Source: Promethearchaeia archaeon
GTDB taxonomy: Archaea; Asgardarchaeota; Lokiarchaeia; Sigyniarchaeales; SOKP01
Assembly: GCA_029856105.1 (NCBI GenBank)
Contig: JAHQWH010000155.1
Location: forward strand, 71,699 to 135,698
DNA length: 64,000 nt
Reading direction: 5' to 3'
This document shows, piece by piece, positions 24,711-32,091 of the stretch. The notes under the pieces were generated by a model, which searched no databases, was not told where the DNA came from, and saw nothing but the letters and a program-made list of their open reading frames with translations. Positions within the stretch are counted from its first letter, which is position 1. Every line of letters starts with the position of its first letter. A program made the position numbers and the translations under genes.

Positions 24711-25847
24711 ATGATGTCTGAAACTTATGAAAACTTTATGATTTATGGATTAGAAAGTACCGGAGAAAAAGTAAGGTTAGATATAACAGAAGAAGATTTT
24801 CGCGCTAATAATGGAACGAACGTATTAAATCCTTTCCAAGTACTAGTTATCGTAAAAGAAGGGTTGAGGAGAATCTACATTTGGAAGGGTATTGAGTCCC
24901 CCGTTAGAAAAAAGTTTATTGCGTCGCAAGTCGCAGCACAATTACAAAACGATTTAGTCGTTAATGGCCATTTTCATAGGTGTAAGATAATTTCGGTCGA
25001 CCAAGGAGACGAACCACGCGATTTTTTGAGAGCGTTTGATTTTGAATCAACAGAAATTCCAGAAATCTCAGAAGCTGACAAAAGCGAGTTTAGACAGATT
25101 AACTCTATTTCTACGGGTACAACATCTAAAACTATAGAAAAGAAGGTTTATCAATGGGGGGGACCTCCTCCTGCTTTAAAAGCTAATAGTACAATCATCA
25201 AACAAACAAGAGAATCCGATAAAGCAATTACGCCAAAAATTAAAGACATTAATAAACCTCCCGAATTAGATACTAAGAAAATTATCGAAAAGATTGTAGC
25301 AAACGAGGTCCCAGCCAATTTTAAGCGTCAAAATTTGATTTTAGGTAACTTCGAAATTTACGGAGCAGTTATCAAGAAAGCTAAAATTTTCGGAAAAGAA
25401 GTAGAAGAGATCGATTGGGAACCAGTTAACTCCTTACCTCACGAAGTAGTCGAGCTAGATAATCGCACTTTAAGAATTTATTTCGATGGAGAAAATGGGA
25501 CAATCAAAGGACTAGAAATACTTCAAAAAATGGGTGCTCCTCAAATTGAAAAAAAAGATAGCAAAATAGATTATAATAAATGGACAGTAAAAGATTTGAA
25601 GCAATATTGCCAAGAACGCAACATAAAAATACCATCGTGGTATAAAAAAGCAGATATTATAAAGCTTATTCAATACGGGCCCACTCAAGATGCTACTGAA
25701 CAAAAAATTGACTATAACAAGTGGACGGTAAAACTACTAAAGGAATTCTGTCAAAAAAATAATATTAAGGTTCCATCTTCCTATAGAAAAGCGGATATCA
25801 TACAACTTGTGAATGATTTTAATAATAGTATACCAAATAAAGATTAA
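24711..25847 (+). CDS. Gelsolin-like domain protein with two C-terminal HeH/SAP/Rho-N-like repeats
   Basis: IYIWKGIESPVRKKFIASQVAAQL...ISVDQGDEPRDFL matches the gelsolin repeat signature (W.G..s......a...a..l...v.qG.Ep..F); two WTVKxLKxxC...KADII repeats at the end. Confidence 0.75.
   Translation: MMSETYENFMIYGLESTGEKVRLDITEEDFRANNGTNVLNPFQVLVIVKEGLRRIYIWKGIESPVRKKFIASQVAAQLQNDLVVNGHFHRCKIISVDQGDEPRDFLRAFDFESTEIPEISEADKSEFRQINSISTGTTSKTIEKKVYQWGGPPPALKANSTIIKQTRESDKAITPKIKDINKPPELDTKKIIEKIVANEVPANFKRQNLILGNFEIYGAVIKKAKIFGKEVEEIDWEPVNSLPHEVVELDNRTLRIYFDGENGTIKGLEILQKMGAPQIEKKDSKIDYNKWTVKDLKQYCQERNIKIPSWYKKADIIKLIQYGPTQDATEQKIDYNKWTVKLLKEFCQKNNIKVPSSYRKADIIQLVNDFNNSIPNKD
25563..25811 (+). repeat. 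Intragenic duplication, two 36-aa units 141 nt apart
   Basis: KIDYNKWTVKDLKQYCQERNIKIPSWYKKADIIKLI versus KIDYNKWTVKLLKEFCQKNNIKVPSSYRKADIIQLV. Confidence 0.9.
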
Positions 25848-26131: not shown

Positions 26132-27172
26132 ATGAAAACAAAATCGCAGATTAATATTTTGACCTATATAGGCCGCAGAATATTAATTTCAATTCCTGTT
26201 TTATTTGGGATCATAACAATAGCCTTTTTAATTAGTAGGGCGGTTCCAGGTGATCCTGCTCTTAATAGGCTTCCTGTTCAAGCCCTTGGTAGATTATATG
26301 AAGCGGAACGAGAGAAATTAGGATTAAATCAACCAATTATTGTACAATATTTAATATTTATAAGATTAATATTAACCGGGGATTGGGGATATTCATTAGT
26401 AATATCACCAGATACCGAAATCTGGTTTCTGATATGGGAGCGTTTGCCAAGAACATTAGAACTTATCTTCATAAGCATGTTCATTGCAACATATATAGGA
26501 CTTAAAATAGGGAAAAAAACAGCTTTTAAAAGAAATAAATTTCAAGATAGTATGAGTAGAGTTATACTTTATTTGATTATGGCTATTCCGGGATATTTAA
26601 TAGCATTGTCTACTTTATATTATTTCTCAGCTACGGATATTAAATTATTTCCTTTTTGGGGCTATAAAACGCCAGGCATAGGAGACCCACCTACGATTAC
26701 TTACTCTCGAATAATAGATTCACTATTAGTTTTTAGGTTTGATATTACAATTGATTATTTATATCATTTATTTGTTCCAATTATTACACTGGTTATTATT
26801 CAACTTGTAATAATAACTAGGCATACCAGATCAAGTATGATAACTATTTTACAGCAAGATTATATTCGAACTGCCATAGCAAAGGGAGTAGATGATAAAA
26901 CAGTGCTTAAAAAACATGCACTAAAAAATGCTATTCCGCCTGTAATTACTCAAATTACAATGGGTTTTCCTACTCTACTTGGAACTATGATACCAATTGA
27001 AGTAGCGTTAGAGATTAAGGGGATTGGTCAATGGTTTAATAATGCAGTATACCTCAAAGATTATAATATAATTGTTGCATTAGTATTTGTATACGGAATA
27101 ATAGCAATATCTTTCAATCTAATTGCAGATATTGCATATTCAATAGCAGATCCAAGAATAAGATATAAATAA
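26132..27172 (+). CDS. Di/oligopeptide ABC transporter permease (DppB/OppB family), orphan
   Basis: PGDPA, GDWGYS, RLPRTLEL, QDYIRTAIAKG (EAA loop), HALKNA, DPRIRY. Confidence 0.92.
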   Translation: MKTKSQINILTYIGRRILISIPVLFGIITIAFLISRAVPGDPALNRLPVQALGRLYEAEREKLGLNQPIIVQYLIFIRLILTGDWGYSLVISPDTEIWFLIWERLPRTLELIFISMFIATYIGLKIGKKTAFKRNKFQDSMSRVILYLIMAIPGYLIALSTLYYFSATDIKLFPFWGYKTPGIGDPPTITYSRIIDSLLVFRFDITIDYLYHLFVPIITLVIIQLVIITRHTRSSMITILQQDYIRTAIAKGVDDKTVLKKHALKNAIPPVITQITMGFPTLLGTMIPIEVALEIKGIGQWFNNAVYLKDYNIIVALVFVYGIIAISFNLIADIAYSIADPRIRYK

Positions 27173-27248: not shown

Positions 27249-30215
27249 TTAATCCTGAGAAGCGTAGAAATCGTCGAAATTCTCTTGTAATTGATCTATG
27301 TATAGCTTTCTCTTTCCAGGTATAACTTTTTCTGTAAGCATTTTTGCTTTCGCGTAGCAGGTGGCTGCTTCTACGCGCATTCCTAAGTGTTTATAAGACT
27401 TGGCTAATTTTAGAAAAGTGTGAAATGCGAACCAACCTCTTGGGTTAGCTTCTAAAGCCTGGGTAAATTTCTCGATAGCACCTTTATAATTTTCTGAGTT
27501 CATCAATACTTCTCCATAGGTATCATACAGGTTTGCATCGAGAGGATGGAGTTCGATAGCTTTTTCAATTGTCTCAATCGCTTCATCGTATCTTCCGATA
27601 TTACTCAATGAAATGGCTCTATTGTTTAATAACCCTGAAGAATCCGGATAAAGGTCTAAGGCTTCGTCAAGAGTCTTGATCACTTCTAAATATTTACCCA
27701 TCGTGTAATACGTAAAACTTTTCAGTTGATACAGCGACTTACGCTCCTGTGGAAATCTTTTCATCATCTCATCGATTAGTGCCATTAATTCACCTTTCAT
27801 ATTATCGTTCGGGAGATATAAGTAAATTTTTGTAGCATGGAAATCGTAGTGGTCAGGGCTTAGTTCAATTGCTTTTTCAATTTCAACTAAAGCCTCTACT
27901 ATCCCATTTGTCTCATTTAAAATATAACTATAAAGTTGATAATACCTAGACAACTGTTTTTCACTCGGCTCCATTGATATCGCCTTCTCAAATTCTTCAA
28001 CATAGAGCTTTTTGTCTGCTTTATTCGCGTCAAAATTGTATACAATGTTAAATCCGTGAACTAATCCAGTAATAATATGAGAAAGTGGGTGGTTTGCGTA
28101 ATGAAATTTTACCTTGTTGACGATGTCTAAGGCTTTCTCGAATTTTCCTCGTGCTAAATACGAAAAGGATAGTATCAAATACGCTGCCGTATCAACACGG
28201 GGGTTACGCTTGAGTAAATTGAATTCAACTACCTGTTTAATCCAATCTTTTCCCTCTTTGTACTTATTTGTAACCGTGTATAATAGAGCTTTCATTACTG
28301 AGAGTTCCAAGTCCTTAGGATTTGCTTCAATTAATAAATTAATAAGTTCCAAAGGTTCGTCAATCGATTTTACACAGCACTCTTTGTCTGTTAGGAGGCA
28401 CAGGAATTTAGTTCGTTGGAGCAAAAAATTATCAGGATGTTCAGCTAATGCTTCTTCAACAACGTCTAAAGCTTTATTGTGATCCAGATTTATTAATATT
28501 TGTGCTTTTTGAGCAATAAGCGACACATCGTAAGTCCTGCTTAACCCTGATTCGATTGTTTCTAAAGCTCTACTGTGATTACCCATAAAGAAATAGGTTA
28601 TTGATTGAAATAAATAACCAATATATTCGTCAGGGTGTTTTATGATGATTTCTTCAGTTAGCTCGAGCGAATCCTCTAACTCTCCGTTGTATGTGTAAAA
28701 TAAATCTTTCAGAAGCAATAACTCGATATCAGTTAAATTCTTTAGATTCTCTGTAAGTAAGTCGTTTACTTTAGATTGTTTCCCTCTCGTTAATTTATGT
28801 TCAATTTTTGTCAAAAATTCCGAATTCTTAGGAAAGTATGTCTTTTTGAACTGAGATGTTCTAATAAAGTTAATTTTAGTCAAATAGAATATGTCCAAAG
28901 TATCAAAAATTCTGTTGTGTAAGAAATAATACGCTTCGCTATCGGCTGGTTTGTTCATCGTACTCGCCGTATCAGATGTATCAAAACTTTGAATTACCTC
29001 GAAAACGTTTTGAAAGGCGATCCCTTTTATTTTATCTGTGTGGTTGATCAAATTCTTCTCGCTCTCAAATTTATAGGCCAAATGCTCGATATACTCGGGA
29101 ATGAATTTTTTTAAAGCCGGTTTCAACTCGTCGTGGAATAAATTACTACACATTTCGCCGGTTATATCTTCAAGTAACTCGTTGATATCGGGTATGTGAT
29201 ATTGAACTCCATTTGCTTTCTGGAATTTACTCAAATACGTAAACTTCCTAATATAATCCTCGATAATTACATTGAGCATTTTTTCTAACCGCTCTTCTGC
29301 CTGAATGTAGTATGTGTATTTATTGCTCACATTTAATTTAAAGAAGCGTATCGGGTAGATGTTATCTTCAACGATCTTCTCAATGAAGAAGTTCAGTGTT
29401 GTTAGCTTTATATCGTATTCTAAAGCAAAATCTTTAGATGTGATGTAGTTAGGGTATTGATCCGGGTGATTAATAGCGAGATAAAGCAAAATTTTATCAA
29501 AATCCACCTCGTCGGATAAAGTGCTTTCAACCTTAGTATAATCCAACCTAAGTACCATATTCAAAAATCTGTATTTTATCCCGTCATCATAGATATCGTA
29601 ATCGTTAAAAAACTCTGTTACCTTGTCTGTTATTACCTCAACTCTCTTAATCTCTTCGTTTAATATTGATTGGCGATCCAAATCGTATTTTTTTAACATA
29701 TTAAAGTATTCTAGTTCACCTGAATTAGTAATCTGATACTCGCGGTTACTTTTTTCGATATAACCATTATCTAGTAAAATATTTATATTCTTTGACAATG
29801 AAGATTGATTAATTCTGAGTGGTTCCTCAAGGAAATCTGACCATTTACAATGGTGGTTATTATATAACATCCATAGAATCCAATCGTCGTAATTTCTCTT
29901 ATTTGTTATAATCTCAGGTGGATAATTCAACGTTTTTTCTAGCGCATCTTTAACTTGAAGATCGGCATACTGTTGACGACCCTCAGCTGTAATCTTATAC
30001 TTACCCTTTGTCTCCTTCTCAATAAAACCATTATTAATTAATATTGCAAGATATTTCGACAAAGTTGCTTGACTTATATTTACAGGATCCGATTTAAAAT
30101 CAGACCATGAACAATGGTCGTTATTATAGAGCATCCAGAGTATAATATGCTCAAAATCTTTGTTGATTTTCATAGGAGTAATTATACCTTCAGGTGGAAA
30201 TTTTGGTACACTCAT
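27249..30215 (-). CDS. Large putative regulator: tandem N-terminal winged helix-turn-helix domains plus C-terminal TPR repeats
   Basis: Two repeats ILWMLYNN..C.WSDF...I.Q..LSK.....L..G.IEK....Y.IT..G (MarR/ArsR-like wHTH); C-terminal TPRs such as NNRAISLSNIGRYDEAIETIEKAIELHP and DTYGEVLMNSENYKGAIEKFTQALEANP. Confidence 0.85.
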   Translation of the reverse strand: MSVPKFPPEGIITPMKINKDFEHIILWMLYNNDHCSWSDFKSDPVNISQATLSKYLAILINNGFIEKETKGKYKITAEGRQQYADLQVKDALEKTLNYPPEIITNKRNYDDWILWMLYNNHHCKWSDFLEEPLRINQSSLSKNINILLDNGYIEKSNREYQITNSGELEYFNMLKKYDLDRQSILNEEIKRVEVITDKVTEFFNDYDIYDDGIKYRFLNMVLRLDYTKVESTLSDEVDFDKILLYLAINHPDQYPNYITSKDFALEYDIKLTTLNFFIEKIVEDNIYPIRFFKLNVSNKYTYYIQAEERLEKMLNVIIEDYIRKFTYLSKFQKANGVQYHIPDINELLEDITGEMCSNLFHDELKPALKKFIPEYIEHLAYKFESEKNLINHTDKIKGIAFQNVFEVIQSFDTSDTASTMNKPADSEAYYFLHNRIFDTLDIFYLTKINFIRTSQFKKTYFPKNSEFLTKIEHKLTRGKQSKVNDLLTENLKNLTDIELLLLKDLFYTYNGELEDSLELTEEIIIKHPDEYIGYLFQSITYFFMGNHSRALETIESGLSRTYDVSLIAQKAQILINLDHNKALDVVEEALAEHPDNFLLQRTKFLCLLTDKECCVKSIDEPLELINLLIEANPKDLELSVMKALLYTVTNKYKEGKDWIKQVVEFNLLKRNPRVDTAAYLILSFSYLARGKFEKALDIVNKVKFHYANHPLSHIITGLVHGFNIVYNFDANKADKKLYVEEFEKAISMEPSEKQLSRYYQLYSYILNETNGIVEALVEIEKAIELSPDHYDFHATKIYLYLPNDNMKGELMALIDEMMKRFPQERKSLYQLKSFTYYTMGKYLEVIKTLDEALDLYPDSSGLLNNRAISLSNIGRYDEAIETIEKAIELHPLDANLYDTYGEVLMNSENYKGAIEKFTQALEANPRGWFAFHTFLKLAKSYKHLGMRVEAATCYAKAKMLTEKVIPGKRKLYIDQLQENFDDFYASQD
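29706..30200 (-). repeat. Internal duplication of wHTH domain (aa ~6-83 and ~98-170)
   Basis: FPPEGIIT...FEHIILWMLYNNDHCSWSDF versus YPPEIIT...YDDWILWMLYNNHHCKWSDF. Confidence 0.9.
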
Positions 30216-30236
30216 GATTAAATAATGGTTTTGTAT

Positions 30237-30244
30237 CTATATAA
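30237..30244 (-). promoter_or_regulatory. Probable TATA box of the wHTH-TPR gene (leaderless transcript)
   Basis: Minus strand AAAAAACC-TTATATAG ending about 22 nt before the ATG at 30215. Confidence 0.6.
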
Positions 30245-30260
30245 GGTTTTTTATTCGCAT

Positions 30261-30286
30261 CGAACTTCGAAGTTCGTTCGAACTTC
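30261..30286. promoter_or_regulatory. Candidate operator: three alternating copies of CGAACTTC
   Basis: CGAACTTC (30261-68), GAAGTTCG (30269-76), TT, CGAACTTC (30279-86); forms a perfect 16-bp palindrome and an overlapping 8-2-8 inverted repeat. Confidence 0.7.
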
Positions 30287-30298
30287 CTAAAGTTAAAC

Positions 30299-30306
30299 TA
30301 TATAAG
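30299..30306 (+). promoter_or_regulatory. Probable TATA box for the small-ORF array
   Basis: TATATAAG just downstream of the operator, 72 nt before ATG 30378. Confidence 0.55.
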
Positions 30307-30377
30307 AACTGCGAATCTAATAAAATTATCAACAAAAAAAGAACTTAAAAAAAAAAAAAGTAAAAAAGTGAAAAAAA

Positions 30378-30665
30378 ATGGCACAAGCAATAGTAAAAAA
30401 AACCATTTCCAAAAACCATATGGAGTGCGACCTCCCAACTTTAGCCCAGAACTTAGCACTTGAGGTGCTGGAGCCTCAGGTGCTGGTTCAAATCAACGAA
30501 GAAGCGAAGGTTGAATCAAGTTTACTAAAGAACAAGTTTTTGAGAGTGTTCAATAATATTAAATATAACGCGAGGATTTCGGAAGAGAAAGTCTGTATAA
30601 ATAATTATAAGGGGCAAGTAGACGCAAAGCTTCTTGGAGCTCGCAATTCCATGTTAAATTTCTAA
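30378..30665 (+). CDS. Hypothetical 95-aa protein ending GARNSMLNF (array member 1)
   Basis: ATG after A-rich leader AAAGTGAAAAAAA; coding-like composition between homopolymer-rich spacers. Confidence 0.7.
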   Translation: MAQAIVKKTISKNHMECDLPTLAQNLALEVLEPQVLVQINEEAKVESSLLKNKFLRVFNNIKYNARISEEKVCINNYKGQVDAKLLGARNSMLNF

Positions 30666-30734
30666 TTAAAAATATTTTTTTTTTAACCAGGAAAAAAACA
30701 AAAAAACCAGAAAAAAAAAACGAGGTAAAATAAA

Positions 30735-30809
30735 ATGGAAAAGTATGAGGAAAGAAGAAGAATAATAATTAAGAACGCAGGGTACGTTCCTAAGCGTTTA
30801 GATTTTTAA
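30735..30809 (+). CDS. Small peptide MEKYEERRRIIIKNAGYVPKRLDF (24 aa, array member 2)
   Basis: Hand-translated; SD-like GAGGT at 30722-30726; same G-x5-L-x-F terminus as its neighbours; followed by a T-tract. Confidence 0.65.
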   Translation: MEKYEERRRIIIKNAGYVPKRLDF

Positions 30810-30883
30810 ATTAAATTTTTTTTAATTCAAGATTTAACCAAAACAAATAAAAAAAAACAAAAAATAAAAACGAGTGAAAAAAA

Positions 30884-30961
30884 ATGAAAAGAAAAGAGAG
30901 AATATATAACAAAGCGATCCTAAACCCTACGGGATATAATACTGCAACATTAAGATTTTAA
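30884..30961 (+). CDS. Small peptide MKRKERIYNKAILNPTGYNTATLRF (25 aa, array member 3)
   Basis: Hand-translated; leader AAAAACGAGTGAAAAAAA resembles those of members 1 and 2; G-x5-L-x-F terminus; followed by a T-tract. Confidence 0.65.
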   Translation: MKRKERIYNKAILNPTGYNTATLRF

Positions 30962-31179
30962 ATTAATTTTTTTTTAATTTTTATTTTTAAACATTTTAGA
31001 TAGTTCTTTAAACTGTTTTCGCCCATTTTTAGAAATTAAGTAGCGACCTTCTTCTATTTTGAAAATAAATCCCTATCAGAGAGCAGACATAAATATTTTG
31101 ATATATTTGGTTGAGAGAAACTGAGAGGTTTGTGATTTACGATATTGAAAATTAAAAAAAATTAAATTTAATTAAAATT

Positions 31180-32091
31180 TTAACTAAATACACTGGTTCC
31201 TTCCTGCTCTAAGAGATTTCGAATCTTTGTGAGATAACTTCTTTTATAAAGTTGAAGCTTTGATTCAGAAAAAGGTAATAAACTCCAATAATAGACCAGA
31301 ATCTCTTCAGGATGTAATCTGTGCTGGTTGTTGTAAGGGTCGATTTCTTCGCACAAGTCAAACAATTTTTGGGGAGCGTTAATGAATTTTGGTCGATTGT
31401 TTTCATATAAAGGCAAGCATTTATTATCTTTCATTTCAGACTCAAGAAAAGTAAAACGGAAATATTCAAAGAAGTACCCACCATTATAAGGGGTTTTTGA
31501 ATAGAGAAAAGGAACTGCTTTTATTTGAGCCCCGTTGATCTGAAATTCTACATAGGAATTCTTCCCAATAGTATCAGGATTTGACACATATAGGTGTTTA
31601 TATTCTTTAGGGATATCTAATTCAGGACAAGCTGTAAATCCTAGTTTAAGATATAACTCATTCCTAAATTTTGGGTTAGTAGTGCTAATTACATGAAAAA
31701 GTTCGTGTGCGATTAGTTCTTTTAATTCGTCGTATGGCCATTGAACCATAGAAATTGGGACGTAGATACACGTATTCCTCGTATAAGCAGCATCACATTC
31801 CTCTCGACCTGTAGTTTTTATAAGCTTAACGCTGTCCAATAAGTATTCTTTGTACGGCGCGTAGCAAATGTCCAATTCACTGAAAATTCTATTAACGATA
31901 GTTTCCTCAGAATTTGTCCATTCAACCGTTTGTCGGGAAAGAAATTCCAATAAGTCTTCTTTCGATACCTTTTCCGTGGTTCCTAAGCGAGACTGTAAAT
32001 CAAACTCGCTAAAATTAGAAATATAATCGTCTTTTTCGGCGATTATGGAGGATGCTATTTTTGCATCAATAAGTTCAGCCTTCAAATACAT
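31180..32091 (-). CDS. Putative zinc metallopeptidase (zincin HExxH)
   Basis: AAYTR...ELIAHELFHVIS, SNPD, downstream HPEEI as possible third ligand. Confidence 0.7.
   Translation of the reverse strand: MYLKAELIDAKIASSIIAEKDDYISNFSEFDLQSRLGTTEKVSKEDLLEFLSRQTVEWTNSEETIVNRIFSELDICYAPYKEYLLDSVKLIKTTGREECDAAYTRNTCIYVPISMVQWPYDELKELIAHELFHVISTTNPKFRNELYLKLGFTACPELDIPKEYKHLYVSNPDTIGKNSYVEFQINGAQIKAVPFLYSKTPYNGGYFFEYFRFTFLESEMKDNKCLPLYENNRPKFINAPQKLFDLCEEIDPYNNQHRLHPEEILVYYWSLLPFSESKLQLYKRSYLTKIRNLLEQEGTSVFS

Follow-up and report, generated by a model that had tools for sequence, protein, structure and literature searches.

The stretch of DNA considered here (the window) comprises 64,000 nucleotides (nt) of contig JAHQWH010000155.1 (assembly GCA_029856105.1, positions 71,699 to 135,698 of the forward strand) from a Promethearchaeia archaeon of the Lokiarchaeia (Asgardarchaeota), whose genome assembly has 3.66 Mb, 32% G+C and 238 contigs. 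Within it, the gene of a 988-amino-acid (aa) regulator that combines winged helix-turn-helix (wHTH) domains with tetratricopeptide repeats (TPRs) is separated by a divergent gap of 162 bp (30216-30377) from three consecutive small genes encoding products of 95, 24 and 25 aa. Attention had been drawn to this arrangement by a sequence-only reading of the same DNA, which noted that the three plus-strand open reading frames (ORFs) all have Phe as the last residue, with Leu at position -3 and Gly at -9 (G-x5-L-x-F), and its ORF coordinates, gap length and C-terminal ends are exact throughout. The small-protein array is composed of the following features:

30378-30665, plus strand: gene of the 95-aa protein (P0002), with 63 homologues, an AlphaFold2 (AF2) model and a C-terminus of the form L-x-F.
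30675-30692, plus strand: a run of ten T followed by AACCAGGA, the boundary between cassettes, read from the sequence; in relatives a T-run and CCAGGA also stand before the next cassette.
30722-30726, plus strand: ribosome-binding site GAGGT, 8 nt upstream of the ATG of the 24-aa gene, kept in 8/8 type-B genes.
30735-30809, plus strand: type-B micro-protein gene, 24 aa, with eight orthologues in frame.
30816-30823, plus strand: a run of eight T on the 3' side of the 24-aa gene, read from the sequence; T-runs follow most of the orthologous cassettes.
30872-30876, plus strand: ribosome-binding site GAGTG of the 25-aa gene, with GAGTG or GAGGT in four type-C genes.
30884-30961, plus strand: type-C micro-protein gene, 25 aa, with four orthologues in frame and an in-frame indel of three codons.
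30967-30975, plus strand: a run of nine T, then two runs of five T, where the array ends, read from the sequence.

Arrays of this kind, with one ORF of ~90 aa and one to three micro-ORFs of 22-29 aa, lie divergent from orthologous regulators as well. The full array in relatives consists of the ~95-aa gene followed by micro-protein types A, B and C, of which B and C are present and type A is missing in the window. The closest relative, with a regulator 93% identical, carries all three micro-ORF types. At another locus (L006, G005:C150; regulator 89% identical) the 95-aa gene is lacking and the array opens with micro-ORFs A, B and C, so the 95-aa protein is dispensable for keeping the micro-ORFs. 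A 1008-aa paralogue of the regulator (L063, G015:C8) stands opposite micro-ORFs only, of 22, 24 and 27 aa. All three products have an aromatic C-terminus with Y-N-P-x-[YF] close to it, and many micro-proteins of these arrays contain the turn motif N-P-x-[YF].

The two short ORFs of the window had been described as unannotated, and neither the 24-aa nor the 25-aa product is present in a collection of 15 billion proteins. GAGGT or GAGTG is found 7-10 nt upstream of each micro-ORF ATG within an A-rich leader, T-runs lie 3' of the stop codons, and indels among orthologous micro-ORFs stay in frame. Among the eight type-B orthologues, differences are distributed over the three codon positions as 150/106/252, and 102 codon differences are synonymous. 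Based on the in-frame conservation, the in-frame indels, the ribosome-binding sites, the T-runs and the third-position bias, the comparison of sequences identifies both micro-ORFs as real, conserved genes that have never been annotated. Could they instead be leader peptides or attenuators, or chance ORFs in an A/T-rich spacer that yield no functional protein? The array region is of very low sequence complexity, a T-run follows each micro-ORF, and type B contains an Ile run of the sort seen in bacterial attenuator leaders. Nevertheless, amino acids are conserved while codons change synonymously and indels keep the frame, the ribosome-binding sites are conserved, and so are the C-terminal residues, which goes beyond mere ORF length. 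Also, the next gene beyond the array is convergent and thereby leaves nothing downstream to attenuate, and Rfam gave no structured-RNA match over 29500-32000. We regard this explanation as the most improbable of those discussed here.

The boundary element (A)ACCAGGA (30685-30692 in the window) is conserved at loci L025 to L034, where it follows the T-run of the 95-aa gene and precedes the next micro-ORF by ~30-45 nt; it may mark a start site or a processing site, or belong to a cassette promoter. A genome-wide search for the cassette architecture returned only the 24- and 25-aa ORFs and one orphan on another contig. This orphan cassette (G000:C230:8189-8275, minus strand, outside the window) has an A-rich leader, GGAGG and a T-run and encodes 28 aa; the last of these is Tyr, and the second half of the product is similar to the C-terminal module of the ~90-aa family. 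No regulator or operator is located near it.

On the other side of the gap, the regulator gene and its domains are arranged as follows:

27249-30215, minus strand: gene of the tandem-wHTH/TPR regulator (P0001), 988 aa, supported by the ORF, Pfam, AF2 and same-genus orthologues.
29946-30158, minus strand: wHTH 1, aa 20-90, matched by Pfam HTH_45, HTH_34 and MarR, with an AF2 predicted local distance difference test score (pLDDT) of 82-89.
29682-29903, minus strand: wHTH 2, aa 105-178, matched by Pfam HTH_45 (second stretch), HVO_A0261_N and HTH_27, AF2 pLDDT 79-92.
28926-29675, minus strand: family-specific middle region, aa 181-430, with invariant columns and low pLDDT.
27261-28925, minus strand: TPR superhelix, aa 431-985, ~14 repeats, matched by Pfam TPR families, AF2 pLDDT ~85-95.

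Pfam places the two wHTH stretches at about aa 25-85 and 111-168 and matches multiple TPR families in the remainder, with TPR_2 at 2.4e-25. The wHTH matches comprise two stretches of PF14947 together with PF13601, PF01047, NF053610 and NF033788 below or near their cut-offs, which indicates a wHTH of the HTH_45/MarR/ArsR/Sso10a type (Pfam, NCBIfam). The AF2 model, built on an alignment of 13 relatives, repeats the topology of three helices and two strands twice and assigns aa 20-90 to the first wHTH, 105-178 to the second, 180-430 to a segment of low confidence and 430-985 to a confident TPR superhelix. The two wHTH domains and the long TPR region recognized by the sequence-only reading are thus confirmed by both Pfam and AF2. 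Its third wHTH, placed near aa 258-310, stays unconfirmed: Pfam gave no match within the middle region (aa 181-430), and AF2 modelled aa 260-305 as helix-helix-strand-strand with a pLDDT of only 34-52, so this segment may at most be a candidate third wHTH.

Structural comparison of the model with Foldseek gave TTC7B, OGT and the TPR subunits of the anaphase-promoting complex (APC/C) as the best folds, with Ski3 and Tom70 also among the top 50; as modelled, the nearest folds of the regulator are long eukaryote-type TPR superhelices. In the regulator-family alignment, invariant columns are densest in aa 1-445, and the family varies mainly in its TPR part. The middle region is highly conserved across paralogues, conserved K/N/D/E/Y residues are present in the TPR helices, and the regulator is acidic, with a net charge of -33.

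The divergent gap holds three elements:

30237-30244, minus strand: TATA box of the regulator promoter, read from the sequence and kept in the orthologue alignment; the role is inferred.
30261-30286, no strand: predicted operator of alternating octamers, CGAACTTC / GAAGTTCG / (2 nt) / CGAACTTC, from the alignment and its uniqueness in the genome.
30299-30306, plus strand: TATA box of the small-protein promoter, read from the sequence and conserved in the alignment; its role is likewise inferred.

The 20-bp palindromic core of the predicted operator (30266-30285) is invariant in 8/8 aligned loci, namely the window and seven orthologues, and its flanks vary. The three-octamer cluster occurs once in the 3.66-Mb genome, and a 20-mer with up to 3 mismatches would be expected 0.01 times per window. 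All other paired half-sites in the genome fall within coding sequence, and no second operator site was found there. At deeper paralogues, related GAAGT/ACTTC (GAACTTC-type) half-sites are found at the same position.

The predicted operator sits between two back-to-back TATA boxes and ends 12-16 bp upstream of both. In archaeal promoters, activators rather than repressors sit upstream of the TATA box, so the position of the operator suggests an activator. The regulator ATG is ~25 nt from its own TATA box, and the regulator mRNA is therefore probably leaderless. On the other side of the gap, an A-rich leader of ~48 nt is predicted for the small-protein mRNA.

Searches with the N-terminal 560 aa of the regulator revealed orthologues in the same genus at 62-93% identity, plus many paralogues, and the relatives span 615-1011 aa. 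Among 42 genomes of the genus, 22/30 loci of the ~90-aa family have a divergent regulator at 155-254 nt. Pairwise distances of regulators and small proteins co-vary (Mantel r = 0.84, with 0/2000 permutations reaching that value). This shows that the pairing is old and stable; linkage alone would yield the same co-variation, so contact between the two partners does not follow from it.

We contend that the module is most plausibly a local transcription factor of the tandem-wHTH/TPR type together with a regulated small-protein output, and as the explanation of the whole we assign this a probability of about 0.55. The tandem wHTH of the regulator would bind the palindromic operator at 30261-30286, from which it would control, and probably activate, its own gene as well as the small-protein genes on the other side. 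Translated from the latter, the helical-hairpin protein of 95 aa and the micro-proteins of 24 and 25 aa would be the probably cytosolic output, and their common aromatic tail, G-Y/A-x4-[LIF]-x-[FY] in this lineage, may serve as a docking tail for one shared site. The module is specific to one Lokiarchaeial (Asgard) genus.

The genes that face the paralogous regulators bear directly on this reading. The ~990-, ~1010- and ~850-aa classes of regulators mostly carry the ~90-aa gene and/or micro-ORFs. The ~825-aa class (L068, L069, L070, L072, L073 and L022) instead stands opposite a conserved protein of ~245 aa with an H-box-like HDISNLFQII, which may be a histidine-kinase-like partner. Many members of ~650 aa are divergent from Rab/Arf-like GTPase genes (L080, L081, L083, L085, L089 and L095; also L021, L022, L046 and L049), and these GTPase genes are sometimes preceded by a protein of 65-82 aa with the conserved motif W-[KN]-[KR]-S-x-G-Y-[FY]-Y..N-P-x-[KR]-F-x-F. 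Next to three members of ~650 aa there is a gene for a distant 65-67-aa relative, and still other paralogous regulators stand opposite small membrane-protein genes. That a long TPR domain always marks an array carrier was considered and rejected, given that the ~825-aa class faces the H-box protein and the 65-67-aa relative accompanies three ~650-aa members. The occurrence of paralogues opposite GTPases, H-box proteins and membrane proteins favours a local regulator with its target over a receptor with its own ligand; these other divergent genes and the similar half-sites are consistent with a family whose members each act locally on a target of their own. Regulator plus output is accordingly the safer reading in comparison with peptide sensing.

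Several points weigh against this interpretation. An 81-aa subfamily of the ~90-aa family is located away from any regulator, and the small proteins have no Pfam, NCBIfam, PADLOC or PDB-fold match that would give them a function. The preference for activation over repression comes from operator geometry alone. Also, there is no copy of the operator before cassettes B and C, which follow runs of eight to ten T, so these cassettes would have to rely on read-through of single T-runs or on unrecognised promoters, and their dependence on the regulator is assumed.

The 95-aa protein has 63 close homologues from Lokiarchaeial metagenomes, none of them named, and a profile search of 1.8 billion representatives gave 45 clusters only, all of 56-99 aa, so that on present sequences the family is a small and lineage-restricted one. 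Its conserved part is the C-terminal 40 residues. In the AF2 model the N-terminal half is disordered and aa 40-94 form a helical hairpin, whose last helix reaches a pLDDT of 86-94; Foldseek found no structural neighbour of this model in the PDB, and a feature search of the Atlas led only to unnamed clusters. In many micro-proteins, N-[PAG]-x-[YG] comes after three to five consecutive I/V/L residues, which looks like a strand-turn-strand pattern. The three small proteins of the window are basic (net charge +3 to +5), with a grand average of hydropathy (GRAVY) of -0.84 to -0.99 in the micro-proteins and -0.20 in the 95-aa protein, a maximum 9-residue Kyte-Doolittle hydropathy of no more than 1.16 and hydrophobic runs of 3-5 residues at the longest. 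Being basic and hydrophilic, they are probably cytosolic, and the earlier remark that these peptides are basic and without a hydrophobic signal sequence agrees with the measured values.

The pattern G.{5}L.F-stop occurs ~126 times in six frames of the genome, and the three ORFs of the array are its only cluster; given that G-x5-L-x-F was picked after the fact, conservation is the proper test. Within this orthologue group, Gly -9 followed by Tyr or Ala holds in type B, type C and the 95-aa protein. Gly -9 fails in type A and in deeper paralogues, and the exact G-x5-L-x-F is not universal. The sequence-only reading, which was to fall if the small ORFs and their C-terminal motif proved not to be conserved, is thus not refuted, and its interpretation is supported in part: the ORFs and the aromatic end are kept, in deeper paralogues too, whereas the exact motif with its Gly is not. 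A terminal Phe or Tyr is found in 21/29 proteins of the ~90-aa family and in 20/28 micro-ORFs (~71%), against a background of 0.11 for long ORFs and 0.15 for all 18-35-aa ORFs in the genome. Aromatic C-termini are thereby enriched about five-fold, in counts that draw on related, non-independent genomes and span paralogue groups whose regulators are only 40-50% identical. As far as the alignments go, the general feature of the arrays is a hydrophobic-x-aromatic, or simply aromatic, C-terminus rather than the exact G-x5-L-x-F, and its sharing among the small proteins suggests one common docking site.

It can be speculated that this site is the concave groove of the regulator's own TPR domain, where the aromatic C-termini would dock in an intracellular feedback; docking would alter DNA binding by the regulator or its recruitment of TBP/TFB and so close the loop. 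TPR domains are known to bind free C-terminal tails, as in Hop/CHIP with EEVD, PEX5 with SKL, APC3/Cdc27 with the IR tail, and BamD with the beta-signal of outer membrane proteins that ends in Phe, and APC/C TPR subunits are among the best folds of the regulator. The same C-terminal motif recurs in four otherwise unlike small proteins of an array that lies next to a gene for a very long TPR domain, and the pairing persists through deep paralogue divergence. The variability of the TPR domain next to a conserved aa 1-445 would be expected of a specificity domain, and an acidic regulator faces basic small proteins. However, AF2 models the last 20 residues of the 95-aa protein with confidence as a helix, not as an extended tail. 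TPR paralogues that face GTPase, kinase-like and membrane-protein genes imply that the TPR domain need not sense the product of its neighbour, and the correlated distances are what linkage by itself predicts. No fused (Rosetta-stone) form of the ~90-aa family is found among longer proteins, which is weak evidence. On balance, we consider feedback through the TPR groove a possible but rather doubtful explanation. Its broadest version is an Asgard intracellular peptide-receptor circuit, in which the 22-29-aa and ~90-aa proteins dock in the TPR domain of their own activator, paralogous pairs act as private switches and sister regulators drive Rab-like GTPase genes; this proposal is the more tentative of the two.

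The comparison with tail-binding TPR receptors is close in some respects, as in both cases the small partners of a long TPR domain are conserved at the extreme C-terminus, and APC/C TPR subunits and OGT are among the best folds. Hop/CHIP, PEX5, APC3 and BamD are, however, without a DNA-binding domain, which the module regulator possesses, and they are not encoded beside their ligands. With archaeal local wHTH regulators (MarR/ArsR/Lrs14/Sso10a-like), the module has in common the wHTH matches, the predicted palindromic operator in a divergent promoter and a likely autoregulation. It differs from them by the tandem wHTH in one chain, by the additional middle region of 250 aa and TPR domain of 550 aa, and by having micro-proteins as targets.

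The sequence-only reading had also likened the module to the RRNPP family (Rap, Rgg, NprR, PlcR, PrgX, AimR). The signature of this family has five points: a propeptide of 10-100 aa, a secretion signal, a receptor of 250-500 aa, TPRs and adjacent genes, where secretion is judged by a Sec signal or by a hydrophobic peptide of the SHP/PrgQ type exported by PptAB (PMC10075063). The module agrees in its small ORFs (95, 24 and 25 aa), its TPRs and the adjacency of the genes (162 bp), and departs from the signature in having no secretion signal, as judged by hydropathy, and a receptor of 988 aa. None of the RRNPP models (Rap/Rgg/NprR/PlcR/PrgX/AimR) is among the Pfam or NCBIfam matches of the regulator. 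Membership was therefore rejected: the wHTH is not an XRE-type HTH, no family model matches, the TPR folds are eukaryote-type, and the size of the receptor, the hydrophilic peptides and the lack of a conserved exporter also speak against it. The module is not a member of RRNPP and, by analogy, may work in an RRNPP-like manner only in the intracellular sense.

The nearest likeness is to Rgg/SHP and ComR/ComS of Bacillota, where a cytoplasmic protein with DNA-binding and TPR parts is encoded beside, and often divergent from, unannotated ORFs of ~20-30 codons; these ORFs have a basic N-terminus, no Sec signal and key residues at the C-terminus, and several receptor-peptide paralogue pairs occur per genome. 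The differences are considerable. The module receptor has 988 rather than 250-500 aa, its DNA-binding part comprises two, perhaps three, winged helices and no XRE-type HTH, and its ~14 TPRs form an open eukaryote-like superhelix. The peptides are hydrophilic, whereas those of Rgg/SHP and ComR/ComS are hydrophobic, no partner of the PptAB, Eep or Opp type is conserved near the module, and the host is an archaeon with TATA/BRE promoters, the BRE being the TFB recognition element.

True RRNPP-like quorum sensing would require export, processing and re-import of the micro-proteins before the TPR receptor could sense them. Agreement extends to three of the five RRNPP points, with a TPR and DNA-binding receptor adjoining ORFs of 10-100 aa that have strong ribosome-binding sites; the basic N-terminus of the micro-proteins resembles that of SHP/PrgQ-type peptides, and a gene for an OppB-like permease abuts the regulator gene. 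Against this stand micro-proteins with no hydrophobic core and a GRAVY of about -0.9, a wHTH receptor of 988 aa that no RRNPP model matches, an OppB-like gene absent from 8/8 orthologous loci, flanking genes that are inconstant and without a recurrent exporter or protease, and the lack of a second operator site in the genome. Given this balance, quorum sensing is very unlikely here.

The OppB/DppB-like ATP-binding cassette permease gene itself (26132-27172, plus strand), with BPD_transp_1 and an N-terminal domain, lies between a gelsolin-HeH gene and the regulator. It is missing from 8/8 syntenic orthologous loci, and no OppA/C/D/F genes adjoin it, which suggests that it was inserted recently or is a remnant. 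As a peptide importer, this gene was rejected on these same two grounds.

In literature searches, we found neither an archaeal peptide-sensing TPR regulator or transcription factor nor an account of Asgard micro-protein arrays, and the regulator/micro-protein module of this single Lokiarchaeial genus is undescribed. Gene callers miss genes of 22-29 codons, and a conserved class of such genes, with their own ribosome-binding sites and terminators, is hidden here in A/T-rich spacer. In the Asgard archaea, which among prokaryotes are most closely related to eukaryotes, these micro-proteins go together with a large, lineage-specific family of transcription factors that bear TPRs. Docking of the tails in the TPR domain, if it occurs, would make this family the first known in archaea to sense peptides, and it would do so with a long, eukaryote-like TPR superhelix. 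Even if the small proteins are outputs only, the module offers a defined operator, promoter pair and regulator for studies of Asgard transcription control, as well as micro-proteins whose docking motif can be tested, and its paralogous regulators link it to Rab-like GTPase genes of interest for Asgard cell biology. The module is a good experimental target.

A further possibility is that the small ORFs are toxins or precursors of bacteriocins or of ribosomally synthesized and post-translationally modified peptides (RiPPs), merely controlled by the regulator. The tandem short ORFs have a charged N-terminal part in common and variable C-terminal parts, and a gene for a HExxH protein (31180-32091), GNAT genes and a ThiF gene are located near the array. 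The HExxH gene is, however, found within the stretches examined at only 4/8 orthologous loci and is unlinked to the paralogous arrays, and no conserved modifying enzyme lies beside the array. The presumed cores show no richness in Cys, Ser or Thr, membrane toxins would be less hydrophilic than these peptides, and PADLOC gave no match. A role as RiPP precursors or toxins is therefore highly improbable.

The HExxH protein (303 aa, minus strand) is without a Pfam, NCBIfam or PADLOC family and may be an unclassified metallopeptidase. Where it occurs among the eight orthologous loci examined, it is 83-90% identical and lies at a variable distance from the array, and it is never found beside paralogous arrays. 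As a conserved processing partner it was rejected, for it is found in half of the loci examined, at no fixed distance, and away from every paralogous array.

Genes beyond the array vary among genomes, with no recurrent exporter or protease, and comparison of the orthologous loci reveals no conserved gene for export, proteolytic processing or import next to the module. Given this inconstancy, conservation of the module is confined to the regulator, its predicted operator and the small-protein genes. The regulator side is syntenic in 8/8 orthologous loci compared, with gelsolin-HeH, major facilitator superfamily (MFS) and hydrolase genes, and gene order thus points to a stable chromosomal locus rather than an island, with the module vertically inherited. 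The gelsolin-HeH gene (24711-25847, plus strand) encodes a gelsolin-like domain fused to SAP/HeH repeats and accompanies the regulator in 8/8 loci at 52-87% identity.

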